Assembly (NCBI RefSeq): GCF_904830955.1
Contig: NZ_LR882970.1
Reading direction: 5' to 3' (one strand)
DNA: 64,000 nucleotides
Source of the DNA: Planktothrix tepida
GTDB lineage: Bacteria > Cyanobacteriota > Cyanobacteriia > Cyanobacteriales > Microcoleaceae
A program made the position numbers and the translations under genes. Shown here one piece after another: positions 6,954 to 55,606 of the stretch. Within the stretch, counting starts at the first letter, position 1; the number at the start of each line of letters is the position of its first letter. The notes under the pieces are model-generated. The model made no database searches. It had not been told where the DNA came from and was given only the letters and a program-made list of their open reading frames with translations.

Positions 6954-7045
6954 TTCAATGGGAATCTGTGGCTCCCTCGCCATCTTAGGACAAAAACTGC
7001 TATAATTGATTTAAACGAAGTCGTTATGAGTTTGAAATAAGAAGA

Positions 7046-8413
7046 ATGACAAACCCAACCGTTGAAAATCTTGTAATTATTGGTTCTGGGCCTGCTGGTT
7101 ATACAGCAGCAATTTATGCTGGACGGGCGAACTTGAAACCCGTTGTCTTTGAAGGCTATCAACTGGGGGGAGTTCCGGGGGGTCAGTTAATGACCACCAC
7201 AGAAGTTGAGAACTTTCCCGGTTTTCCCGAAGGCATTACCGGGCCGGAACTCATGGATAGGATGAAAGCCCAAGCCCAACGGTGGGGGGCGGAACTCTTT
7301 ACCGAGGATGTGATTTCCGTTGATTTGAGTCAACGTCCCTTTACCGTTAAATCAGAGGAGAGGGAACTCAAAACCCATGCCATTGTGATTGCGACGGGGG
7401 CGACGGCGAAACGCCTACATCTTCCCCATGAAGACCAATTTTGGAATGCAGGAATTTCCGCCTGTGCGATTTGTGATGGGGCGAGTCCGATTTTCAAAGG
7501 AGTCGAATTAGCGGTTATCGGGGGAGGAGATACCGCCGCCGAGGAAGCCGTTTATTTAACCAAATACGCCACCCACGTTCATTTATTAGTCAGACGCCAT
7601 GAACTGCGGGCGAGTAAAGCCATGCAGCAACGGGTTCTGACTCATCCTAAAATTACGATACATTGGAATACCGAAGCGGTGGATGTTTATGGCAATGATA
7701 AATTAGGTGGGATTAAAATTAAGAATAACCAAACCGGAGAACAACAGGATTTACCCGTACAGGGGTTATTTTATGCCATTGGTCATACTCCCAATACCCA
7801 AATTTTCCAAGGACAATTAGACCTAGATGAAGTGGGATATATTGTCACGAAACATGGCACTCCTGAAACCAGCGTTGAAGGGGTTTATGCCGTTGGGGAT
7901 GTTCAAGATCATGAGTTTCGTCAAGCCATTACAGCCGCCGGAAGTGGGTGTATGGGAGCGATGTTAGCAGAACGGTGGTTATCCATTCATGGGTTAGCGC
8001 AGGAAGTTCAACAAACAGAAACTTCTGAACTGGAAGCGGAAACTCCAACTTCAACCCAACCTCAAATTACCACTTCTGAAAATTTCGATATCCAAAATAC
8101 CCGCCATACGGGGGGTTATGCCTTGCGGAAACTTTACCATGATAGCGATCGCTTAATTATGGTAAAATATGCCTCACCCACCTGCGGGCCATGCCATGCC
8201 CTTAAACCCATTTTAGATAAAGTGGTTGGTGAATTTGAGGGTAAAATTCACTATGTCGAAATTGACATTGAAGAAGATCCAGAAATTGCCCAAAGTGCAG
8301 GGGTGGTTGGCACTCCAACGGTGCAGATGTTCAAAAATAAAGATTTAATTCAAGATCTCAAAGGCGTGAAACCCAAGAGCTTATATCGGGAATTAATTCA
8401 GAATAATTTGTAA
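7046..8413 (+). CDS. ntrC: NADPH-dependent thioredoxin reductase fused to a C-terminal thioredoxin domain (NTRC)
   Basis: Contains the [16 protein letters not shown] motif, the redox CAIC motif and a second GGGDTA NADPH motif. The C-terminal domain carries the thioredoxin WCGPC-type motif (SPTCGPCH). Confidence 0.9.
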
Positions 8414-43870: not shown

Positions 43871-45229
43871 CTAAATGCCTAATCCAAACTCCTTAGCTTC
43901 CGTCAATATCGGGTTAATATCATACCAAAAATGTTGAGCATGATTATATTCAAAAACCCATAAACTTCTGATTAGGGTTTGATATTCAATTTGACCACTC
44001 AACTTTTTAGTCGCTGCTACTTGGCGTAACATTTGCCATTCTTCAGCTTCAATGGCTAAGGTTAATTGATGACGACGTTGTAGAATTACCTCTTCTAAGG
44101 ATTCTCTTGTTAAAGGGGGATCTTCTTTTTGTAAACAGCTATATAACAAAATTAATAAACTCCGAACATGACCGCCACTAATGGTACAAAGACGATCTAA
44201 GGTTTCAGGACTATCAAAAATTGTATCAATTAAAGCTGGATAATCTTTCGCAGCCAGACCTGGAAATGCTCTTGCCATTACCATTTGTCTTAACAATTCA
44301 ATTCCCTCTTGACAAGGTGCGCCATCTTCAAATTTTACCGTCACCATCGGTAAGGTTTTTGGGTCATTCCCAAAACGATTCATCAGTTGTCCTAAATCAT
44401 TAGAAAAAATCAAACCTAAAGGAATGGTATAAACTACATGACAATTGAGTTTATTGAGTTGTTCACCGCGATCAATAAATAAATATTCGGGTTGAAATCT
44501 TCCCGTACTATTGGGGCTATAACTAATCCGATCTAAATTATCAATAATCACCACTAAACCTTGTTTTCCCATCTGTTTTAATTGTTGGATGGAAGGTTCC
44601 AATAATTCTTTATTGATAGCCTCTAAAATATTATTGGTTCGGGGTTCTAAATATTGACGTAATAAAGACCGTAAATCTCGACTATCTTTCGTCTTAGCCG
44701 TAATATTTCCAATCCCTGTAGAGAGGGAAAATTCTCCTTCTGTGTTAGCAGCCAATGTTCCCAGACCGGGGACGTTAATATCTGCTTTTAAGTCAATTTC
44801 TGTATTTAAAACATTAATGACTCCACTTAATAAACTTTTAAATCCTTTCGGTTGTAATTTAATTTTCAAGCTTTCAATACTTTCACTCACTTGACGAGCG
44901 ATCGCTAATAAAATATCGGTAATATCCACATCCCCCATATCTAAATCTTTACTCGATTCAAAATAAACGACATGGAATCCTTCTTTTTGGAGTTGAGCTT
45001 TCAACCTCAATAATTCCGTTGATTTCCCTGAACCTACTGGCCCGGTAAACAGTTGGCAGGTGGGGCGATCAGGGGATAACCGCGTAATTGTTCGTGCAAT
45101 TTGTTCCATGCACTTACCGCCTCGTGCTGGAGAAAAATCAATATAATATTTTTGATCTTCTGGACGTTCAACATCGAGGGTTTCAGCCGGATTAGAAGCT
45201 TTAAAAAAGCGAGATAAATCAAGTTCCAT
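43871..45229 (-). CDS. P-loop ATPase (AAA_16/Arch_ATPase-like)
   Basis: Walker A LFTGPVGSGKSTELL and Walker B GLVVIIDNLD are present. 452 aa. Confidence 0.6.
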   Translation of the reverse strand: MELDLSRFFKASNPAETLDVERPEDQKYYIDFSPARGGKCMEQIARTITRLSPDRPTCQLFTGPVGSGKSTELLRLKAQLQKEGFHVVYFESSKDLDMGDVDITDILLAIARQVSESIESLKIKLQPKGFKSLLSGVINVLNTEIDLKADINVPGLGTLAANTEGEFSLSTGIGNITAKTKDSRDLRSLLRQYLEPRTNNILEAINKELLEPSIQQLKQMGKQGLVVIIDNLDRISYSPNSTGRFQPEYLFIDRGEQLNKLNCHVVYTIPLGLIFSNDLGQLMNRFGNDPKTLPMVTVKFEDGAPCQEGIELLRQMVMARAFPGLAAKDYPALIDTIFDSPETLDRLCTISGGHVRSLLILLYSCLQKEDPPLTRESLEEVILQRRHQLTLAIEAEEWQMLRQVAATKKLSGQIEYQTLIRSLWVFEYNHAQHFWYDINPILTEAKEFGLGI

Positions 45230-45353
45230 TGTTTTCCCTGAGTGATACAGTTAACAGACAATTTTAAATTCCCGATCATCCTTCTTCAAGGAGGGGACTT
45301 TTCTCTTTCTTTCGGAAGATATCCTCCCAATTCCGTACTAAGATTCACTTGAG

Positions 45354-46436
45354 TTAGTGGGCTAACCACCAGCCAAAACTCAAGCCCAGACCGGAGGTAA
45401 TCGCTAAAATTAAAAAGGTGTAAAATCCATTGTAGGACGCAAGTAATTTTTCTCCGGCAACCATTTGCGCCACCGTCCCTGCAACCACAGCGATCGCACC
45501 CCAAGCCGCAATAATCACCTCTGGCTGCATTCGTTGGATCACCCGCATCATCGCTTGTTTCCCGGCGCCGATCCAAGCTCCGATCCATCCTCCTAAGACT
45601 AATCCCAATAAACTTCCGGTTCCCAGTTTCGCCCTAGACCGAAAAATCGCATCTAAAATAATTCCTAACATTAATCCCATTATGGAGCCAAAACCCCCAC
45701 CCACCAAAGAACTTAACCAGTCTCCCTTTTTCGTTCCGGCGATTAACCCAGCAATTGCCGCAATTCCCATGATTGTCAAGAGCCCAATTACCCCTTTAGC
45801 AGGGCTTTCTGAGCCTGCCATCGCCCCTAATCCCAAGCCCACGCCTCCCCAGACTAGGGCGGTAATCATCCCCCCAGCTTCGTTTCCTAACACCCATCCG
45901 GCGATCGCTCCGGCAAAGATTAAGGCCATTAACCAAGGTTGACCGGACTCAGAATCTTCACTCGCCGCGATCGTAACCATGAGCCAACCCACGCTGAGAA
46001 AGACCCAAACCCAGGAAGGAATCTTCAATGTGGTTAAAATCCAGGCAATGATGGCATAGCTGAGAAAGACCCCGGTTAACCAACCCATTGGTAGAGGTGG
46101 GGAAGTTGGGGGCACTTCGACAGGCTTAGTGACCACAGGGGGAGTTGGGGGTACTTCGACAGGCTCAGTAACCACAGGGGGAGTTGGGAGGGTAGGGTAG
46201 GGGCTACTTAAATCTGTTTTTAAGGTTTCGTAGGCGTGGCTAATTTCTTTAAATTTGGCTTCCGCTTCCGCTTGTAAGATAGAATTCTGGGGATAGCGAT
46301 CGGGATGCCAAATCAACGCCTGATGGCGATAGGCTTGTCTGACCTCCTCTAAGGACGCCCCCGGTTCTAGGTTTAAAATTTTGTAGTATTTTTCGATCTC
46401 CACGTTTGAAATCTGTTGATCTTCTTTTATTTTCAC
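45354..46436 (-). CDS. J-domain protein with a Pro-rich tandem-repeat linker and a C-terminal Gly-zipper multi-TM domain
   Basis: The J domain YYKILNLEPGASLEEVRQAYRHQALIWHPDR carries HPD. The repeated PPVVT(E/K)PVEVPPT unit occurs twice. The C-terminal half is hydrophobic and G/A-rich. Confidence 0.7.
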   Translation of the reverse strand: MKIKEDQQISNVEIEKYYKILNLEPGASLEEVRQAYRHQALIWHPDRYPQNSILQAEAEAKFKEISHAYETLKTDLSSPYPTLPTPPVVTEPVEVPPTPPVVTKPVEVPPTSPPLPMGWLTGVFLSYAIIAWILTTLKIPSWVWVFLSVGWLMVTIAASEDSESGQPWLMALIFAGAIAGWVLGNEAGGMITALVWGGVGLGLGAMAGSESPAKGVIGLLTIMGIAAIAGLIAGTKKGDWLSSLVGGGFGSIMGLMLGIILDAIFRSRAKLGTGSLLGLVLGGWIGAWIGAGKQAMMRVIQRMQPEVIIAAWGAIAVVAGTVAQMVAGEKLLASYNGFYTFLILAITSGLGLSFGWWLAH

Positions 46437-46496: not shown

Positions 46497-49382
46497 GTGT
46501 TGGAACATCCCCTATTACTTTTGGTTGATGGTCATTCGTTGGCATTTCGTTCCTATTTTGCCTTTGGGAAAAGTCGCCAAGGAGGGTTACGCACGTCAAC
46601 GGGTATTCCGACCAGTGTTTGTTTTGGGTTTTTGAAGTCATTATTAGACGTTATGGCAAGTCAAAAGCCGGATTATTTAGCGATCGCTTTTGATTTAGGA
46701 GTTCCTACGTTTCGTCATGAAGCGGATGAAAATTACAAAGCGGATCGCTCTGAAACGCCTCAAGATTTTATTGAAGATGTGCAGAATTTACAAGCGTTAT
46801 TACAAGCGTTTGATTTAAGCATTGTTACGGCTCCGGGTTATGAAGCGGATGATGTTTTAGGAACCTTAGCCAACCGGGGAAGCCGGGAAGGATATCGAGT
46901 TAAAGTTTTATCGGGAGATCAGGATTTATTTCAATTAATTGATCTTGAAAAACAGATTAGTATTTTACATTTAGAACCGGGCAAAGGTAGTGTTCCTACA
47001 GAGTTTTTAGCTCAACAAGTTTATGATAAATTACAGATTTATCCTCATCAGGTGATTGATTATAAGGCATTATGTGGCGATAAATCCGATAATATTCCAG
47101 GGGTGAAAGGCATTGGGAAAACTACGGCTGTTAAATTATTAGGAGAATATGGTTCCTTAGAAAATATCTATGCTCATCTTGAGGATATTAAAGGCGCAAC
47201 TCGCCAAAAATTAGAGGAAGGAAAAGCCGATGCGGATCATTCTCAAACCTTAGCGCGAATTATTCAGGATGTACCTTTAGAGGTTGGTTTAGAAAATTTT
47301 AAATTACAAGGGTTTGATGTCGCTAAAATTCAACCTATTTTAGAGAAATTAGCCTTTCAAACATTTTTAGGAAAAATCAATCAAATTCAACAGCAATTTA
47401 AAGGAATAATTCAAACAGAAGTTACAGAAAATCCGGTTACTGTTGGGGACGATATCGATTTTTGGACACCGGAAGAAACCACAGCTTACCAAGAGCAAAA
47501 ACGGTTAAATAGTCCTGTGTCTAACATTAAAGTGCGTTTAATTCAAACTTCAGACGCTTTAGAAGAGTTAGTTGATATTTTAAAACAGCATACTGATGTT
47601 AACTATCCCGTTGCTTGGGATACGGAAACCACCTCTTTAGAATTCCTAAAAGCGGAATTAGTTGGAATAGGATGTTGTTGGGGAACAGAAGCAACCGATG
47701 TGGCTTATATTCCGTTAAATCATACTCAAGGAACAAATTTAGATAAAGTCCAAACGTTAGATCTTTTACGTCCGATTTTAGAAAGTGATCGCTATCCTAA
47801 AACGTTTCAAAATGCTAAATATGATCGGTCAATTTTTAGATCTCAGGGCATTAATTTACAAGGTGTTGTCTTTGATCCAATGTTAGCCGATTATATTTTA
47901 AACCCGGAAGCTAATCATAATTTAATTGATTTAAGTCTCAGACATTTAGGATCTGAATTAATCGCTCCTAGTTATGATGAATTAGTTCCTAAAGGGAAAA
48001 CTATTGCAGATATTAATATTAATCAAGTCGCTGAATATTGCGGAATGCAGGTTTATGTCACTTTTCAATTAGTAGAAAGCATCAAAGCCAAATTGATAGA
48101 TAAGCCTCATCTGATGAAACTTCTAACCGATGTTGAACAACCTTTAGAAGTTGTTTTAGCCGATATGGAATATTGGGGAGTAAATCTCGATATTGAATAT
48201 TTGCAAACTTTGGCAGAGCAACTCGATAAACAGTTAGAAATTATTGAAAATCAAGCTTATGAACTAGCTGGAGAAAAATTTAATTTAGGTTCTCCTAAAC
48301 AACTTAGCCAACTGTTATTTGAAAAATTAGAATTAAATACCAAAAAAACGCGCCAAACAAAAACAGGCTATTCAACGGATGTCAATGTTTTAGAAAAATT
48401 ACAAGGAGATCATCCTATTATTGATGTTATATTAGAATATCGAACTTTAGCGAAACTGAAGTCAACTTATGTGGATGCGTTACCCACAATGGTTGATGCT
48501 AAACAACGCATTCATACCAGTTTTAACCAAACCGTTACCGCAACAGGACGGTTATCTTCTTCTAATCCTAATTTACAGAATATTCCGATTAAAACTGAAT
48601 TTTCTCGAAAAATTAGAAAAGCCTTTACAACGGAACCCAACTGGTTATTAGTATCAGCCGACTATTCCCAAATTGAACTCAGAATTTTAGCTCATTTAAG
48701 TCAAGAACCTATTTTATTAGACGCTTATCAAAATAATCAAGATGTTCATACCGTGACCGCTAAATTATTATTTGAAAAAGACACCGTAACATCCGATGAA
48801 CGACGGTTAGGGAAAACCATTAATTTTGGTGTAATCTATGGAATGGGAGCCCAACGATTTGCACGGGAAGCAAAGGTGAGTAGTGCAGAAGGTAAGCAAT
48901 TTATTGAACGATTTAACCAACGCTATTCCCAGGTTTTTGCTTATTTAGAAACGGTTAAAAGACAAGCAATTGCTCAAGGGTATGTCGAAACTATATTAGC
49001 AAGAAGACGGTATTTTGATTTTCAAGGAAGCAGCTTAAACAATTTAAAAGGAGTTGATATTAATTCCATTGATTTAAGCCAATTAGGAAAAAAAATGGGT
49101 CAAAATGATGCCCAACTATTAAGAGCCGCTGCTAACGCTCCTATTCAAGGTTCCAGTGCTGATATTATTAAAATGGCAATGGTACAAGTGCATCAACTAT
49201 TAACTCAATATCAATCTCGATTAGTATTACAAGTTCATGATGAATTAGTCTTTGAAATTCCTGAGACGGAATGGGAAGAACTTCAACCCAAAATTAAAAC
49301 TATTATGGAACAAGTGCTTCCTTTAAGTGTTCCTTTAGTTGTAGATATTCACGCTGGACAAAATTGGATGGAAGCGAAATAA
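46497..49382 (+). CDS. polA: DNA polymerase I
   Basis: A 5'-3' exonuclease N-terminus is present (LLLVDGHSLAFRSYFA). The 3'-5' exonuclease domain and the polymerase motifs are present: motif A DYSQIELR, motif B RRxxKxxNFGxxYG as RRLGKTINFGVIYG, and motif C QVHDELVFE. 961 aa. Confidence 0.95.
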   Translation: MLEHPLLLLVDGHSLAFRSYFAFGKSRQGGLRTSTGIPTSVCFGFLKSLLDVMASQKPDYLAIAFDLGVPTFRHEADENYKADRSETPQDFIEDVQNLQALLQAFDLSIVTAPGYEADDVLGTLANRGSREGYRVKVLSGDQDLFQLIDLEKQISILHLEPGKGSVPTEFLAQQVYDKLQIYPHQVIDYKALCGDKSDNIPGVKGIGKTTAVKLLGEYGSLENIYAHLEDIKGATRQKLEEGKADADHSQTLARIIQDVPLEVGLENFKLQGFDVAKIQPILEKLAFQTFLGKINQIQQQFKGIIQTEVTENPVTVGDDIDFWTPEETTAYQEQKRLNSPVSNIKVRLIQTSDALEELVDILKQHTDVNYPVAWDTETTSLEFLKAELVGIGCCWGTEATDVAYIPLNHTQGTNLDKVQTLDLLRPILESDRYPKTFQNAKYDRSIFRSQGINLQGVVFDPMLADYILNPEANHNLIDLSLRHLGSELIAPSYDELVPKGKTIADININQVAEYCGMQVYVTFQLVESIKAKLIDKPHLMKLLTDVEQPLEVVLADMEYWGVNLDIEYLQTLAEQLDKQLEIIENQAYELAGEKFNLGSPKQLSQLLFEKLELNTKKTRQTKTGYSTDVNVLEKLQGDHPIIDVILEYRTLAKLKSTYVDALPTMVDAKQRIHTSFNQTVTATGRLSSSNPNLQNIPIKTEFSRKIRKAFTTEPNWLLVSADYSQIELRILAHLSQEPILLDAYQNNQDVHTVTAKLLFEKDTVTSDERRLGKTINFGVIYGMGAQRFAREAKVSSAEGKQFIERFNQRYSQVFAYLETVKRQAIAQGYVETILARRRYFDFQGSSLNNLKGVDINSIDLSQLGKKMGQNDAQLLRAAANAPIQGSSADIIKMAMVQVHQLLTQYQSRLVLQVHDELVFEIPETEWEELQPKIKTIMEQVLPLSVPLVVDIHAGQNWMEAK

Positions 49383-49406: not shown

Positions 49407-50948
49407 TCAAGTAGATTTTGTATTAATTATTCGAGATCTATAGCTATCAAAAAGTTCATCAATTTTTTGGGGGTCAGATACAAGTGTTCCCCGTTCATCT
49501 CGAAAGGTGCGATCGCGATCGCCCTTAAAAGAAAGCCAATTAAAACTTGTTGTAACAGCAAATTTTCCATCAGATATGAGGATTTTTGCGTGGGTATCTC
49601 CAAGACGTTTAAGGATAAAATTACCTTGGTACTGATTTGCTAATTTTTCAAGATTTTTCTCAGCTTGAATATCAGATTTTGAATTTTTATCATCGTTTTC
49701 TCCTAAACCGTACCCAATCAAAACTTGTACTCCCCGTTTGAGAAGATTTTCAAACTGTTGAATAAACTTTTTATCCACAGAACTTGCTCGAATCCAAGGA
49801 GAGATAATCATTAAACGTTTTTGACTCTCTTTAAGTGCTTGTTCGAGGATAGGACGGTGTTCGTACATTTCTAGCCATCGCATCGGAACTGAAGCTAGAA
49901 TAGAATCAAGTTGAGCTTGAAGTTCTTTTATTTGCTGTTGTGCTTCTTGAAGCTTTTGATCAAGAATGAGTTTTTCCTGATCATCTTCAGTTTGTTCAAG
50001 AGTATTTTGAGTTGTTTGTATTTTTTCTTCTATTTGAGCTTGAGCAGCAAAAACTTTTTCCTTAATCGCTTCAATTTCTTGTAAAGGAGCTTGAGCAACA
50101 AATTCATATCCTAAAACTGCTTCAGCTAACTTTCGGGGTGCGCTCTCTTTTAGGTTTTCTAATATCTGAAGTTTTTTGATTCCATTAGTACGATCAAAAA
50201 TTTCTTCATGATCATTAGAAATAACATCATCAATCGCAAAAGATACCTGAATATTATCACTATCTTTTGCCTTATAAATCAGCATCAAAGCGGGTTGAAA
50301 AAATATCGACCTGCGCTCAATAGCTTTCAAGGCTAAAAGGTCTCGCTCTTGCTTAACTCTGGCTTTGCTGGCTCCGTCAATCTGGCGAATAATTTTGTCT
50401 ACATCTTTGAGTTTAAGATCGGAAATTTCTGGTGACTTTTTTGGAAAGGGATCAATTTCTATAATGTCTTGATTACGCAAGTCTTTTTGCTTAAGTAAAC
50501 GTGACTCTAACTTTCCGTACCAACGAGGATACCGTAAAAGTCCATCAAAATTGATATCAAATGTTCGCTCTTCTGGAACAATAATTTTAGCCTCGCGGAG
50601 TGTTCCTTCACCTTTTTTCGTCAACTTCCAAACCTGTATCTGAGAGCCATCAGGAGCTATGAGGTCTATATCCTCACTCATCCTTAAATTGATCATTGCA
50701 TCCCTGACAATAGGCAATTCAATGCCAAGAAATCCAGCAATATCCGTTTCAGAGGATAAACCAGCATTAATCGATTTCAAGACATATTCTTCTATTGGTG
50801 GAATTGGTTTATGCAGTTGAGTTAGAGCTTGAACAGTAATTTTATAAACAGGTAAACCGACTTGTTTACAACTCACTAAATCGAAGCCTGTACGATTATT
50901 GTAGCGACGCAGTTCTTCTGGAGAAAAATCGAGATTTTCTAACTTCAT
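49407..50948 (-). CDS. Single-HKD phospholipase-D-family nuclease (MkoB-like), with a ~330-aa N-terminal region and a central coiled coil
   Basis: The C-terminal HKD motif is present as GDTHAKILISDGKFAVTTSFNWLS (HxK(x)4D followed by S/N). The coiled-coil segment spans EKIQTTQNTLEQTEDDQEKLILDQKLQEAQQQIKELQAQL. Confidence 0.7.
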   Translation of the reverse strand: MKLENLDFSPEELRRYNNRTGFDLVSCKQVGLPVYKITVQALTQLHKPIPPIEEYVLKSINAGLSSETDIAGFLGIELPIVRDAMINLRMSEDIDLIAPDGSQIQVWKLTKKGEGTLREAKIIVPEERTFDINFDGLLRYPRWYGKLESRLLKQKDLRNQDIIEIDPFPKKSPEISDLKLKDVDKIIRQIDGASKARVKQERDLLALKAIERRSIFFQPALMLIYKAKDSDNIQVSFAIDDVISNDHEEIFDRTNGIKKLQILENLKESAPRKLAEAVLGYEFVAQAPLQEIEAIKEKVFAAQAQIEEKIQTTQNTLEQTEDDQEKLILDQKLQEAQQQIKELQAQLDSILASVPMRWLEMYEHRPILEQALKESQKRLMIISPWIRASSVDKKFIQQFENLLKRGVQVLIGYGLGENDDKNSKSDIQAEKNLEKLANQYQGNFILKRLGDTHAKILISDGKFAVTTSFNWLSFKGDRDRTFRDERGTLVSDPQKIDELFDSYRSRIINTKST

Positions 50949-50958
50949 ATTTATTTAA

Positions 50959-51321
50959 CTAAATCTCTATTTCGGGTAATAGGTTCATTAATTTAGCAAC
51001 TACTTCAATTAGGACTTCTGGAGGCATTTTACAAGCAAACTCTGCTTGCCTTGCTTGCCAATCAAAGGATTTAATTTGATCGGCTAAAACAACTCCTGAT
51101 ACTGCCAATCCTTCTGGAATTGCTACTTCAAAAGGATAACCTTTTACTCGGCTAGTAATTGGACAGACTAAAGCTAGTCCAACTCGGCGATTATATGTTG
51201 TTTTTGAGATAACAATAGCTGGACGACGACCTGCCTGTTCCCTCCCTAATTGCGGAATAAAGTCAATCCAAATGATATCACCTTGACGGGGAATATACAA
51301 CTGAGGATTATCAGAATTCAT
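50959..51321 (-). CDS. mazF: MazF/PemK-family type II toxin (mRNA interferase)
   Basis: The 120-aa sequence PRQGDIIWIDFIPQLGREQAGRRPAIVIS...LALVCPITS matches the conserved MazF/PemK core. Confidence 0.8.
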   Translation of the reverse strand: MNSDNPQLYIPRQGDIIWIDFIPQLGREQAGRRPAIVISKTTYNRRVGLALVCPITSRVKGYPFEVAIPEGLAVSGVVLADQIKSFDWQARQAEFACKMPPEVLIEVVAKLMNLLPEIEI

Positions 51322-51327
51322 ATATTA

Positions 51328-51537
51328 TTATAACCCAATTTCACTATGAATGCTATCAGGTTTGATTGCTTCTAATAATTGCTTCAATTGACTCTCTCTT
51401 TGAATTAAACAAGGTAATTTAGCAGCAATAATTTCAATTGCTAAATATTCTATTGATTCTTCTTTTATTTCGGCTAGCAAAGAGAGTTGCTCAAAAAGCG
51501 TTTCCGAAATTTCTAATGTTATTTTGTGGTCTTTCAT
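51328..51537 (-). CDS. Putative cognate antitoxin (MazE-like) for the downstream MazF
   Basis: 69-aa acidic protein whose stop lies 6 nt upstream of the MazF start. Confidence 0.5.
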   Translation of the reverse strand: MKDHKITLEISETLFEQLSLLAEIKEESIEYLAIEIIAAKLPCLIQRESQLKQLLEAIKPDSIHSEIGL

Positions 51538-51619
51538 TGAACACCTGCTTATTTCGTAATCTACCAGTTGTAAAATGAGTAATATACAGACTATTTACCC
51601 GATAAAGGCTATACAGGAA

Positions 51620-54600
51620 TTATAACCCAGGCTCAGTTAAATCGCAATTTTCACGGTGACATTCAATATACTCTAAAACTCGGTGTAATGGATTCTCCTG
51701 TGAAGTTCGACAGAAATGGTGATCTCCCACAATTACTAAACCCACTTTACCTCTGGATAAAGCCACATTTAATCGTTCTGCATCACGCAGAAAACCCACT
51801 TTACCTTGTTTGTTAGAACGAGTTACAGAATACACGGCAATATCAGCTTCACGTCCTTGGAACGCATCTACTGTATTACACTCAACTGTTAATGCTTGCC
51901 AATTGTTTAATTCTGAATTAAGCCTACGATTAAGTAATTTTAGCTGTGCTGCATACCCGGTTAAAACAGCCACACTATATTTTTTTTCAGCTTTTACTGC
52001 TGTCTGATTTAGCTGTTTGAGAAACTCAACAATGACGTTTACTTCACAGGGATTGTTAAAGCTAGAATTTACAGACTGTTCATGAGAATTTTTAAGTTTA
52101 CTTGTTGTTAACCAAGTAACGGTTTTTGGTAATATTTTAGCCAGGTCTTTATCGATATCTGTCCTGGCACTTTTGAGTTGACCTTCATAAAAGCATTCAC
52201 TAACTAAATTGCCAATTGGTGCAACCATCCGATGTTGAATCGTTAACATCTTGCGACACCCATCTGGGAGTGTTCTAAGCAGTCGATCAAATAGAGTTTC
52301 TCGAATATCATCTTGAGTCAGTTCGTATTCGTCTAAAAAGTCAGAATTTCTGCTAACTTCATCTTTAAAGGGTGGCAGTTGTTTAGGGTCACCAACCAAT
52401 ATCCAGCGATGAGATCGCGCCATTGGGACTAATACTTCTGTCGCCGTAGCTTTTGAAGCTTCATCAACAATACACAGGTCAAATTCTATGTCTTGAATCT
52501 CTCTAGGAATTCCGATACAAGTCCCAGCTATTACTTGCGATCGCTTAATTAAAGGTATATTGAATTTGTCATTTCGACCAAACTGCTCAAACCATTCTGT
52601 TTGAATTTTTAGCAAGTTTTGTAGCATTTTTGAATCTGAATTATTTTGATCAATGAGTTGATTAATCTGTTCTTGTATCTCCTCAACCGATAATCTCAAA
52701 AGTTGATTGATACTACTTCTAGTTAATTCTTTTAACCGCTTGGCTTTTTCTTTCTGTTGCTGTCGCGCTTCTTTTAACTGCTGACGTAGAATGTTAATTT
52801 CCACTTCAATACTTTGACATTCCTCTAGCTTATCTTTGGGAATATGAGTTTCTAACAATGAATCTGGATTTTCTATGTCGTAATTTATTGCTAGAATTTC
52901 ATCTAAATCCTGTTTCCAGGCATTAACTTCTTCCCTGAAAGTTTCAATTTTTATTCCCAGATTTCTCATTTCTTGAAATAGTGTGGCTATTTCACTGTTA
53001 TGCCCAGAAATACCTCGTTGTGCTGACCAATTATCAATAAATTCCTGTCCTTTAGCGATCGCCGACTCTCTCCATTGTTCCATTTGTTCTTCCAGTAACA
53101 GAGAATGAACATTTTCTGATACCCTTTCATGGTTGCCAATTCGCAACAATTTCAAGTTAGGATCTTTCACTTTAATTCGTTCTAATGCGTTATCTAGTGC
53201 AACATGAGTTTGTGAACTCAGCAAAATTCTAGTCTCAGGTTTTTGATTAAGAATTTGCAGAACAACTTCTGTAATAAATGTTGTTTTTCCTGTCCCTGGT
53301 GGCCCTTGAACAATTAGAAAATCTTCTGTAGAAAGTGCAGCTTTGACAACTTGTTCCTGTGATTCATTCAGAGATTGAATAAACTGCACATCCACTTCTA
53401 AATCAGGAATACGAACTTCTTGGGGATTGACAAGTAATTGGCGAATATCTGAACGGACTCCCCTATCAAATCTAATTGCATCTAGGGCATTTTTTTGTCG
53501 ATTTAGGGAAACCTCAGCAGCACGAGTATCAAAACGTAATTCTCCAGATTGTGGGAGTCTTTCTGATTCTCCATATTTAATATAAAGAGTCAATTTGTCA
53601 CCGATAACTTGCTCAACATCTCCCTCCAAGATGATCGATTCTTTGGCATTTTTCACATAGCGTGGTTGTCCACCTAGATCATCTTCTGGAAGTTCTGATA
53701 ATTCAAAGGTAACGCGATTTCCATGATGAGTAAAGTCTTTGTATTTAATCGGTTTCTCTCTATTTTTTTCCCAATCACCCTTCGCTCTAAGAATATCCCA
53801 CCAAACTTGAAATATTCGTTGCTTTTCTTTCTCATCTTCCTGTTCTTTTAAGTTATCTTCATGCTCTATAACTGCATCCTCTAAATCCCGAATTACATCT
53901 TCTGCTTCATATAAATTCCGTGGCTTTCCAAATCTGAACTCGTAGGGAAGAATCCAAGAACGTTCTCGACGTTGTTCTAATTGCCAGTAAGAAGTAGACC
54001 AAGCATTCAAAATAACTAGGTGCTGTCGTTGGTTTTGATCTATCTTTATATGATATCGATAGGAAATACCATAAATTTCGTAGTGATCTTCACGGGACGC
54101 AGCATCGTTGGTGTCGTCCTTAAATTTAAAGGGACGAATGCCACAACCAGATTCATTATTGATATCTTCAAGGATAAGATTCTTGATCTCAACTTCTGAA
54201 GAAATCTTCAATTCATTCCTAAGTCGTTCTAAGCACCTTGGTGTAAGCTCAATAAAGCAAGGACGTTTTTTAATTTCTCCTGTTTTTGTCTTTCTTTGAA
54301 TAGCATTAATTTCAGCTAACAATACATCTGCATTATGCTGACGCTCTGCGGGGTCTAAGGAAACAGCACGCTCGATTACTTCTACGATTTCAGAGGGTGC
54401 ATTAAACGCTTTTAGAGCGGTGGAAATATTATTATGTTCTGTTAGTTCAATATTAGTTAAACACTTCAAAACCAATACACCAAAACTGAAAACATCGCGG
54501 GTGTAAGTATAGGAACCATCATCAAATTCTGGCGGCGTGAATGTACGCGATACAAAGTCTTTGAGTGTAATATTGGGTTCCAAATATCTTTTAAGCTTAG

Positions 54601-55072
54601 ATATGCCAAAGTCAGCAAGTTTGAGTTTACCGTCAATTCCTACTAAAATATTGCTAGGTTTAATATCCCGGTGTATAATTCCGCGATTATGGGAAAATGC
54701 TAAAGCTTCCAATGTGGGTAAGGCTATTGCTTTCCAGAATGAATCCCAATCTTCCGGGGGAGATTCTTTTAAAAGTGTTGTTAAATCTTTCTCCATCCAC
54801 TCCAGAACCAGAAAATAATTCCCCGTAGTTTCATCCTTTCCAGAATCAAGGAGTTCCACAATTCTAGGGTGTTTTAACTCTTGGAGAGCTAGGGTTTCAC
54901 GTCTGAAGGATTCGGCTAGAAAATCTGCTTCAATTTGTCCATTTTTGAATTCTTTTACCGCAACTAGCCGTTCTTCTTGGTTGTAGTCTCTTGCGCGGTA
55001 GACATCTGCCATTCCACCTGATCGTGGGTTGGGGGATAGAGCATAGCGATCGTTGATGAAGCGAGGTGGCAT
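51620..55072 (-). CDS. Ser/Thr protein kinase fused to a Upf1/DNA2-like SF1 helicase (COG1112-type), MkoA-like
   Basis: The kinase motifs are the VAVKEF lysine, HRDIKPSN catalytic loop, DFG (LADFGISK) and a TPPEF APE-like motif. The helicase motifs are GPPGTGKT, DEAS (CIVDEASKAT), QHRM and VDAFQGREADIAV. 1150 aa. Confidence 0.8.
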   Translation of the reverse strand: MPPRFINDRYALSPNPRSGGMADVYRARDYNQEERLVAVKEFKNGQIEADFLAESFRRETLALQELKHPRIVELLDSGKDETTGNYFLVLEWMEKDLTTLLKESPPEDWDSFWKAIALPTLEALAFSHNRGIIHRDIKPSNILVGIDGKLKLADFGISKLKRYLEPNITLKDFVSRTFTPPEFDDGSYTYTRDVFSFGVLVLKCLTNIELTEHNNISTALKAFNAPSEIVEVIERAVSLDPAERQHNADVLLAEINAIQRKTKTGEIKKRPCFIELTPRCLERLRNELKISSEVEIKNLILEDINNESGCGIRPFKFKDDTNDAASREDHYEIYGISYRYHIKIDQNQRQHLVILNAWSTSYWQLEQRRERSWILPYEFRFGKPRNLYEAEDVIRDLEDAVIEHEDNLKEQEDEKEKQRIFQVWWDILRAKGDWEKNREKPIKYKDFTHHGNRVTFELSELPEDDLGGQPRYVKNAKESIILEGDVEQVIGDKLTLYIKYGESERLPQSGELRFDTRAAEVSLNRQKNALDAIRFDRGVRSDIRQLLVNPQEVRIPDLEVDVQFIQSLNESQEQVVKAALSTEDFLIVQGPPGTGKTTFITEVVLQILNQKPETRILLSSQTHVALDNALERIKVKDPNLKLLRIGNHERVSENVHSLLLEEQMEQWRESAIAKGQEFIDNWSAQRGISGHNSEIATLFQEMRNLGIKIETFREEVNAWKQDLDEILAINYDIENPDSLLETHIPKDKLEECQSIEVEINILRQQLKEARQQQKEKAKRLKELTRSSINQLLRLSVEEIQEQINQLIDQNNSDSKMLQNLLKIQTEWFEQFGRNDKFNIPLIKRSQVIAGTCIGIPREIQDIEFDLCIVDEASKATATEVLVPMARSHRWILVGDPKQLPPFKDEVSRNSDFLDEYELTQDDIRETLFDRLLRTLPDGCRKMLTIQHRMVAPIGNLVSECFYEGQLKSARTDIDKDLAKILPKTVTWLTTSKLKNSHEQSVNSSFNNPCEVNVIVEFLKQLNQTAVKAEKKYSVAVLTGYAAQLKLLNRRLNSELNNWQALTVECNTVDAFQGREADIAVYSVTRSNKQGKVGFLRDAERLNVALSRGKVGLVIVGDHHFCRTSQENPLHRVLEYIECHRENCDLTEPGL

Positions 55073-55210
55073 AACTTAGCTATCAATAGAAGACATTTGT
55101 TTATTTATAACACAAATTACATTTTTAAGTCATCAAGCCTTTCTACTGTTAATCATCCGAAATCCTCAAGGATGCGGTGGTAGATTTAGAGTAATCCCTG
55201 AATCAATCAG

Positions 55211-55606
55211 TTGAAAATGAAACGATCTCAAAAACCTTGGCAAATTGCTTGTTTTCTCTATTTTTTGTTGTTATTATTAATTGTAATTACAGCAGATCTA
55301 GGAAATTTACCCTATAGTTTATTAGAACAAATTCCCTATTATGATGTCTATGGACACTTTATTTTATATGGAATTGCCTCTTTTTTAACTCATTTAGCCT
55401 GGGGAGGAAAAAAGATTATCATTTATCCCCTATTTTTTCCCCTAGGGCCATTTGTTTTTGCCCTAGTCACTATCGCAGAAGAAATGATGCAAACTCTTTT
55501 TCCCAGTCGTACCTTTAGTTTACTCGATTTAAGCTCAAGTTTAATTGGGATTATTCTATTTTATTATTTAGCAGAATTATGGATTTTTTATCATAAAAAA
55601 AACTGA
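55211..55606 (+). CDS. VanZ-like family membrane protein
   Basis: 131 aa with four TM segments and a VanZ-like hydrophobic pattern. Confidence 0.55.
   Translation: MKMKRSQKPWQIACFLYFLLLLLIVITADLGNLPYSLLEQIPYYDVYGHFILYGIASFLTHLAWGGKKIIIYPLFFPLGPFVFALVTIAEEMMQTLFPSRTFSLLDLSSSLIGIILFYYLAELWIFYHKKN

Follow-up and report, generated by a model that had tools for sequence, protein, structure and literature searches.

Chromosomal toxin–antitoxin (TA) loci can act as anti-deletion or addiction modules that stabilize, for example, superintegrons and genomic islands. RNase toxins also occur inside other loci, as the anticodon nuclease PrrC is embedded in the EcoprrI restriction–modification locus. Endoribonuclease back-up effectors are likewise embedded in BREX loci (PMC12839542). 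With MazF toxins, RHH/CopG antitoxins form an established class of partners, and W73 of the Escherichia coli antitoxin MazE fills the main pocket on MazF (PMC3879964). Type I Mokosh consists of MkoA, which combines a Ser/Thr kinase with a COG1112/Upf1-like helicase, and the PLD nuclease MkoB (Millman et al., bioRxiv 10.1101/2022.05.11.491447), and a MOV10L1/PLD6 piRNA analogy has been drawn for this system (bioRxiv 10.1101/2022.12.12.520048). In the literature that we searched, no link of Mokosh with MazEF or other TA modules was found.

Here, we analyzed a stretch of 64,000 nucleotides from Planktothrix tepida PCC 9214 (the window), in which a small gene and mazF separate mkoA from mkoB of a type I Mokosh system. 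We consider it likely that this pair is an intact and autonomous type II MazEF operon at the mkoA–mkoB junction, whose most likely role is that of a selfish, addictive module.

The toxin–antitoxin pair at the mkoA–mkoB junction

All four genes lie on the minus strand. The product of mkoA (51620..55072; 1150 aa, Ser/Thr kinase and Upf1-like SF1 helicase) matches the PADLOC profile PDLC03920 over its full length (residues 4–1145, E = 1.1e-270), contains the Pfam domains Pkinase (4e-35), AAA_11 (1.5e-45), and AAA_12 (3.6e-46), and has the motifs HRDIKPSN, DFG, and GPPGTGKT. The PLD-family nuclease encoded by mkoB (49407..50948; 513 aa, 100% identical to PCC9214_02654) matches PADLOC profile PDLC03922 (E = 1.7e-89) and PLDc_2 (6.1e-9), and its HxKxxxxD motif, HAKILISD, is invariant in the homologue alignment. 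The genes that flank the pair fit the type I definition and are predicted to form a complete system, and the PADLOC and Pfam matches agree with a preliminary description of this DNA that had called them MkoA-like and MkoB-like.

Between them lie the gene of a mazE-like antitoxin (51328..51537; 69 aa, 100% identical to PCC9214_02656) and mazF (50959..51321; 120 aa). According to the ORF map, which bears out all coordinates previously given for these two ORFs, the mkoA stop codon is followed by 82 nt, mazE, 6 nt, mazF, 10 nt, and the ATG of mkoB. Next to the block lie polA (46497–49382, plus strand) at one end and, at the other, a 131-aa ORF with a GH116 glycosidase gene. Beyond polA, two minus-strand genes (43871–46436) encode a KAP/STAND-type NTPase of 452 aa and a DnaJ-domain protein of 360 aa, and at the position of these genes P. 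agardhii has an AAA_16 protein, a PPC-domain protein, a DNA methylase, and a Uma2 nuclease. As the contents beyond polA differ between P. tepida and P. agardhii, the polA neighborhood looks variable and defense-island-like.

The mazF product covers the full Pfam profile PF02452 (PemK_toxin) with E = 1.2e-26 and 93.5 bits (cut-off 23.1), and it also exceeds the cut-off of the NCBIfam equivalog model for endoribonuclease MazF, NF007386 (125.9 bits, cut-off 120). The closest solved structures are the MazF 7d28_A (E = 1.7e-35) and E. coli MazF (E = 2.8e-27). In HMMER alignments with 3nfc_A and 5ck9_A, E28, R33, and T56 align to E24, R29, and T52 of E. coli MazF, of which R29 and T52 are the catalytic residues. 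With Pfam and NCBIfam scores above the cut-offs and the catalytic Arg and Thr kept, the earlier identification of the 120-aa protein as MazF holds. A word-index search gave at least 7886 homologues at E ≤ 1e-20 among the best 8000 candidates, many of them with 60–80% identity, and the window's MazF is, as far as its sequence tells, a mainstream member of the family. A small antitoxin gene is located directly upstream with only the 6-nt spacer and is conserved together with MazF. Within Planktothrix, the dN/dS values of mazF range from 0.04 to 0.35, with 0.35 for P. tepida versus P. agardhii.

For comparison, we surveyed Mokosh loci in species-representative genomes, using the best 80 of 270 MkoB relatives, which came from cyanobacteria, Streptomyces, Acidobacteriota, Solirubrobacterales, Bradyrhizobium, and others, with Planktothrix itself not among them. 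The gap from the mkoA stop to the mkoB start was measured at the 69 loci at which both gene ends could be placed. Its median is −4 nt, it is zero or negative at 55 of the 69 loci, and its maximum is 250 nt, as compared to 671 nt in P. tepida, where it is filled by the TA operon. A further gene would not fit between mkoA and mkoB at any of these 69 other Mokosh I loci, and the larger gaps (74–250 nt) contained no TA similarity as a scar of a former insert, but short hairpin or MITE-like repeats instead. In six-frame translations of the 80 loci, HMM matches to MazF or the antitoxin family were found within ±10 kb at four (three from Hormoscilla, one from Solirubrobacterales), and none of these matches lies between mkoA and mkoB. 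The nesting of the pair inside Mokosh is therefore real and rare, and the preliminary description rightly singled out this position as the unusual part. Within this sample (the best 80 of 270 relatives), the pair does not form a conserved part of Mokosh.

The Solirubrobacterales match, in a metagenome-assembled genome (L071:11555-11968), is a distant MazF (31% identity, HMM E = 7.9e-10) on the opposite strand, about 230 nt from the mkoB end, and represents an unrelated adjacency. Type I Mokosh systems close to that of the window (MkoB 70–71% identical) are plasmid-borne in the heterocystous cyanobacteria Nostoc linckia NIES-25 (plasmid3) and Anabaena azotica SJ-1, which shows that the system is mobile in the phylum.

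Fate of the pair in Planktothrix and its relatives

In the sister species P. agardhii (loci L001–L006), the syntenic slot between the GH116 gene with a 132-aa ORF and polA holds the antitoxin and MazF only; the antitoxin cluster of this species is recorded on 272 contigs. DNA homologous to the window is restricted to 51632..50945, with the junction 'TTAAATAAAT|TTGATAGCTATAGATCGCGGTTTAACTCTTAA'. After the 10-nt spacer 3' of mazF, the P. agardhii sequence continues with 'TTTGATAGCTATAGATCGCGGTTTAACTCTTAA', which encodes FDSYRSRFNS* and matches the conserved MkoB C-terminus DELFDSYRSRF. The counterpart of this remnant in the window is formed by the 3'-terminal codons of mkoB (FDSYRSR..., 49407..49452, minus strand). 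From its start codon to about codon 499, mkoB is cleanly deleted in P. agardhii, with the last ~10 codons left, and mkoA is replaced by ~304 bp, with only its last ~12 nt remaining. As the 3' remnant of mkoB proves a deletion and not a later insertion, the four-gene arrangement is ancestral in the genus. An ancestral TA-only state to which Mokosh was added later was also considered and is ruled out by the conserved last mkoB codons. P. agardhii has thus lost both mko genes and kept the pair under purifying selection.

The filler in place of mkoA (L001:7596-7898, replacing window 51633-55216) is rich in inverted repeats and contains a hairpin with 24-nt arms of 92% complementarity, followed by a T-run. 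It is identical in eight of eight P. agardhii-type loci and looks like a MITE or a terminator-type element.

All four genes are kept in a second Planktothrix lineage (L096 and L097; MkoB 91% identical), with dN/dS values of 0.27 for mkoA and 0.28 for mkoB. In P. pseudagardhii (LR882967.1, L007:2403-5520), mkoA is broken after about codon 355 by a 3.1-kb insert that carries, on the opposite strand, two transposase-like ORFs of 411 aa and 500 aa, and the pair is intact; the rest of the locus is 98–99.7% identical to the window.

Synonymous divergence between P. tepida and P. agardhii is only 0.07 for mazF (50959-51321 versus L001:8220-8582) and 0.32 for mazE, as compared to 0.58–0.65 for polA and GH116. 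The mazE of P. pseudagardhii (L007:8001-8210) is a mosaic allele, which carries agardhii-type substitutions in its first ~25 codons (MNSHKV...ADL) between flanks that are ~99.8% P. tepida-like. Together, the low synonymous divergence of mazF and this mosaic mazE suggest that Planktothrix species exchanged the TA block by recombination after their divergence.

Outside Planktothrix, the closest MazF proteins (75–80% identity) are found in Hormoscilla and on the metagenome scaffold L088, and they also lie beside Mokosh genes. There, the order is mkoA-mkoB-mazE-mazF-glmM, with the pair directly downstream of mkoB. In a neighbor-joining tree, the Planktothrix and Hormoscilla-type MazF proteins are sister clades in 36 of 50 bootstraps. 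The closest relatives of MkoA and MkoB, from Microcoleus (79–83% identity, among the best 80 of 270), are without the pair, and the same TA family is represented by stand-alone pairs in Nostoc, in Aerosakkonema, and on a metagenome scaffold. Two histories could explain this: an old Mokosh linkage with many losses, or movement of the pair from one Mokosh locus to another.

The pair and the Mokosh genes next to it show decay in Hormoscilla (L040:11947-12207, L045:11632-12163, and L047:9989-11478), for which assembly errors are a possible cause. MazF ends after ~57–80 residues in two of these loci, L045 has a split antitoxin gene, and in L047 mkoB is distributed over three ORFs. On the scaffold L088, genes for a DUF4325 protein, a PIN protein, and an 89-aa/ParE pair lie directly upstream of mkoA (393-1978), and this Mokosh system therefore sits in a TA-like gene cluster.

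As the pair is absent from the 69 other Mokosh I loci measured, as its TA family occurs alone elsewhere, and as it is kept in P. agardhii without Mokosh, it is probably not a Mokosh component. That the pair is instead an integrated accessory of this Mokosh lineage, which would serve as a back-up abortive-infection RNase or guard when a phage blocks Mokosh or shuts it off, or would feed cleaved RNA to the helicase and the PLD nuclease, appears rather unlikely to us, although several observations speak for it. Both MazF sub-clades, sisters in 72% of the bootstraps, are linked to Mokosh, in two gene orders and two neighborhoods; this repeated linkage is the main support for a functional link, and it exceeds what pure hitchhiking readily predicts, which counts against autonomy. 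The genes are tightly packed (82, 6, and 10 nt) with no terminator found before mkoB, and mkoA and mkoB are under purifying selection with the insert present. There are also parallels in PrrC within the EcoprrI locus and in the embedded back-up endoribonucleases of BREX loci (PMC12839542), and anti-phage activity has been reported for MazEF. However, the pair is missing from the 69 other Mokosh I loci, including those of the closely related Microcoleus, it persists under constraint without Mokosh in P. agardhii, and the toxin is truncated in two of the three Hormoscilla loci.

As a Mokosh system that works during MazF activity might avoid the site cut by E. coli MazF, we also examined the frequency of ACA, which is the E. 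coli site and may not be the target of the window's MazF. Relative to synonymous shuffles, ACA is not depleted in mkoA (z = −0.1) or mkoB (z = −1.4), the same as in polA and GH116, which likewise argues, though weakly, against an accessory role. In a more explicit version, the MazEF lineage would already have been associated with Mokosh when the Planktothrix and Hormoscilla TA clades diverged, with MazF as a back-up abortive-infection RNase that is released once Mokosh is disabled or silenced by a phage, or as the initiating RNA cutter for the helicase and the PLD nuclease. The latter would echo the MOV10L1/PLD6 piRNA analogy. We regard this version as unlikely and favor the autonomous MazEF operon. 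If the repeated linkage is nevertheless functional, no accessory module of Mokosh would have been described before this pair.

The leader of the pair and the expression of mkoB

The leader and candidate promoter of the mazE–mazF pair (51538..51647, minus strand) were recognized by a consensus scan and by the conservation of the leader. A promoter-like sigma-70 site, TTGCGA-17-TATAAT, is located at 51647..51619, with a −10 box that overlaps the stop codon of mkoA. The leader has a length of 82 nt, and AGGTG is found 6 nt before the mazE ATG. From the −10 box on, the sequence hardly varies among four Planktothrix lineages, one of them P. agardhii, which has no mkoA. In the latter species, conservation does not extend to the −35 part of the candidate promoter. 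A search with 6-nt seeds found no repeat-type operator in the 82-nt leader, and no terminator-like site was found on the minus strand from mkoA to mkoB.

From the consensus match and the conservation, we infer that the pair has its own promoter, with read-through into mkoB. The anatomy of the locus suggests that mkoB is probably transcribed together with the pair, either from the TA promoter or by transcription passing through it, and that the usual translational coupling of mkoA and mkoB is broken by the nesting. The broken coupling offers a handle on the control of Mokosh stoichiometry and expression.

Such an arrangement could also mean that the antitoxin, which has a predicted RHH domain (see below), was co-opted mainly as a transcriptional regulator of mkoB. 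This would place the PLD nuclease under TA-type autoregulation and leave the toxin as a passenger, which we hold to be very improbable. It would suit the mkoB start only 10 nt after mazF with no terminator-like site between, the strong conservation of the leader, and the established repression of their own operons by RHH antitoxins (PMC3879964), but leader and pair are equally conserved in P. agardhii without mkoB, MazF has kept its catalytic residues and a low dN/dS, and the Hormoscilla pair lies downstream of mkoB.

The antitoxin and the place of the pair among known systems

With a pI of 4.74 and 13 D+E versus 7 K+R residues, the 69-aa protein is small and acidic, as the preliminary description had stated. 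It has no Pfam or NCBIfam match and no PADLOC match of any weight; a PADLOC match to 'Csn2' (E = 0.0021) over a helical stretch was dismissed as spurious. Word-index searches with the 69-aa protein gave matches in Planktothrix only. Using HMMER, we found 24 family members at E ≤ 1e-3, mostly of 77–80 aa, among 1.84 billion representatives, which shows that the antitoxin family is small. Family genes precede the nearest MazF homologues in Hormoscilla, Nostoc, Aerosakkonema, and metagenome contigs, with 43–58% identity, and the same family is found 5' of MazF at L047, L088, L090, L092, L094, and nine metagenome loci. The dN/dS values of mazE are 0.22–0.25 in comparisons with P. agardhii (0.22), another Planktothrix lineage, and Hormoscilla. 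This conservation 5' of MazF homologues across cyanobacterial genera, together with the low dN/dS, shows that the 69-aa ORF is a real gene; a lack of conservation beside MazF homologues, which had been named as a finding that would speak against the pair, is not what we observed.

Searches with tblastn found no copies of the antitoxin in 72,556 plasmids or in 50,697 phage records. Orphan antitoxins with a full MazE-type tail and no MazF downstream are present at L103:6977-7237, L108:~7000-7237, L107, and L109–L111, and the reading frame of the L108 orphan is fused behind an upstream ORF.

The structure prediction that had been proposed for the 69-aa protein yielded, with high model confidence, an RHH fold of one strand and helices. 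The predicted N-terminal β-strand followed by two helices is the arrangement of an RHH domain, and the structural matches of the model are RHH proteins, the best being MazE from a MazEF complex. RHH profiles gave sub-threshold matches with other family members (RHH_7 with 5 of 23, best E = 0.0043; RHH_1 with 3; Arc with 2; ParD with 1) and none with the window protein. The AbrB/SpoVT-type swapped-hairpin β-barrel that forms the N-domain of E. coli MazE was not recognizable, as there is no AbrB or MazE Pfam match and the model is RHH-like.

The C-terminal part of the family has a different affinity. Positions 45–78 of the family profile align to residues 52–85 of E. coli MazE (1ub4_C, E = 6.4e-4), and the tail of 7d2n_E, the MazE partner of the best-matching MazF, is matched with E = 0.024. 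By eye, the family tail aligns with the E. coli MazE tail 'VTPETLHGEVDFGEPVGREIW'. At the family level, an E. coli-type toxin-binding tail is therefore present, of which the window protein has the first two-thirds only. The Planktothrix antitoxin ends with L69 at the position of W73 of E. coli MazE and is devoid of the 9–11 further residues found in every other family member. Its neutralization of the toxin may thus differ from the model. In summary, the 69-aa protein is predicted to consist of an RHH N-domain (about residues 5–45), a helical linker, and a MazE-type tail ending '...IKPDSIHSEIGL', and it would join a DNA-binding with a toxin-binding function, as judged by homology.

The preliminary view that the partner does not obviously resemble AbrB/MazE or RHH antitoxins, and that the pairing may be non-canonical, is not supported, because the model has an RHH fold, the tail is of the E. 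coli MazE type, and RHH antitoxins with MazF are already an established class. A novel partner with a new mode of MazF control can hardly be correct, as the missing weighty Pfam, NCBIfam, and PADLOC matches of the window protein and the mere 24 matches of its family are outweighed by the confident RHH model with MazE as best structural match, the homologous tail, and the sub-threshold RHH matches of other members.

By homology, the autonomous MazEF operon would work as follows. The antitoxin would dimerize via its RHH N-domain and repress its own promoter at the mkoA 3' end, while its C-terminal tail would occupy and block the RNA-binding groove of the MazF dimer. When antitoxin synthesis stops, due to a stress- or phage-induced transcription shut-off or due to loss of the locus, the labile antitoxin would be lost, and the freed MazF would cut single-stranded RNA and cause growth arrest. 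The module would thereby resist its own deletion, and it may travel with the defense locus or may have been captured by it. Any abortive-infection activity would belong to the pair itself.

The antitoxins described here form a small unannotated family of about two dozen 50%-identity clusters that is missed by Pfam and NCBIfam models, and the predicted combination of an RHH domain with an E. coli-type MazE tail is a clean example of antitoxin domain shuffling. Planktothrix provides a natural experiment in which a TA module outlives the surrounding defense system, and this bears on the debate as to whether TA modules in defense islands are defenders, stabilizers, or hitchhikers.

In comparison to E. 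coli MazEF (ChpA, PDB 1ub4), the toxin belongs to the same family at the equivalog level with its catalytic residues kept, the order of antitoxin and toxin is the same, and the tail of the antitoxin family aligns with MazE residues 52–85, but the Planktothrix antitoxin stops at the W73 equivalent, and the rest of the tail is missing. MazEF-mt9 of Mycobacterium tuberculosis (PDB 6a6x) also has an RHH/CopG MazE, but the identity is only 20%, and the tail of the window's antitoxin is of the E. coli MazE type. The window's toxin is also nearer to E. coli- and Deinococcus-type MazF (E = 1e-27 to 1e-35) than to M. tuberculosis MazF9 (~1e-6).

The Mokosh genes around the pair resemble published type I systems in that both are full length, have intact motifs, and have the published domain content. 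They differ in that these genes usually overlap or abut, whereas a 671-nt TA operon separates them here, and in that the TA pair lies outside the system definition.

With PrrC/EcoprrI and the BREX effectors, the locus shares an RNase toxin that is nested in a nucleic-acid-targeting defense operon and is likely co-transcribed with it. Those toxins, however, recur at many loci or are kept silent by the host system, whereas the window's toxin has a dedicated antitoxin, is nested in this way in a single genus only, and, with its partner, persists where the host system has been lost. As addiction modules would predict, P. agardhii lost the DNA on both sides, with deletions that end only a few nucleotides from the intact pair. 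Unlike an anti-deletion module for its surroundings, the pair did not protect its neighbors from deletion, and addiction is a candidate role here. Nested toxic or back-up modules in defense loci are a known theme, and the MazEF system itself is ordinary.
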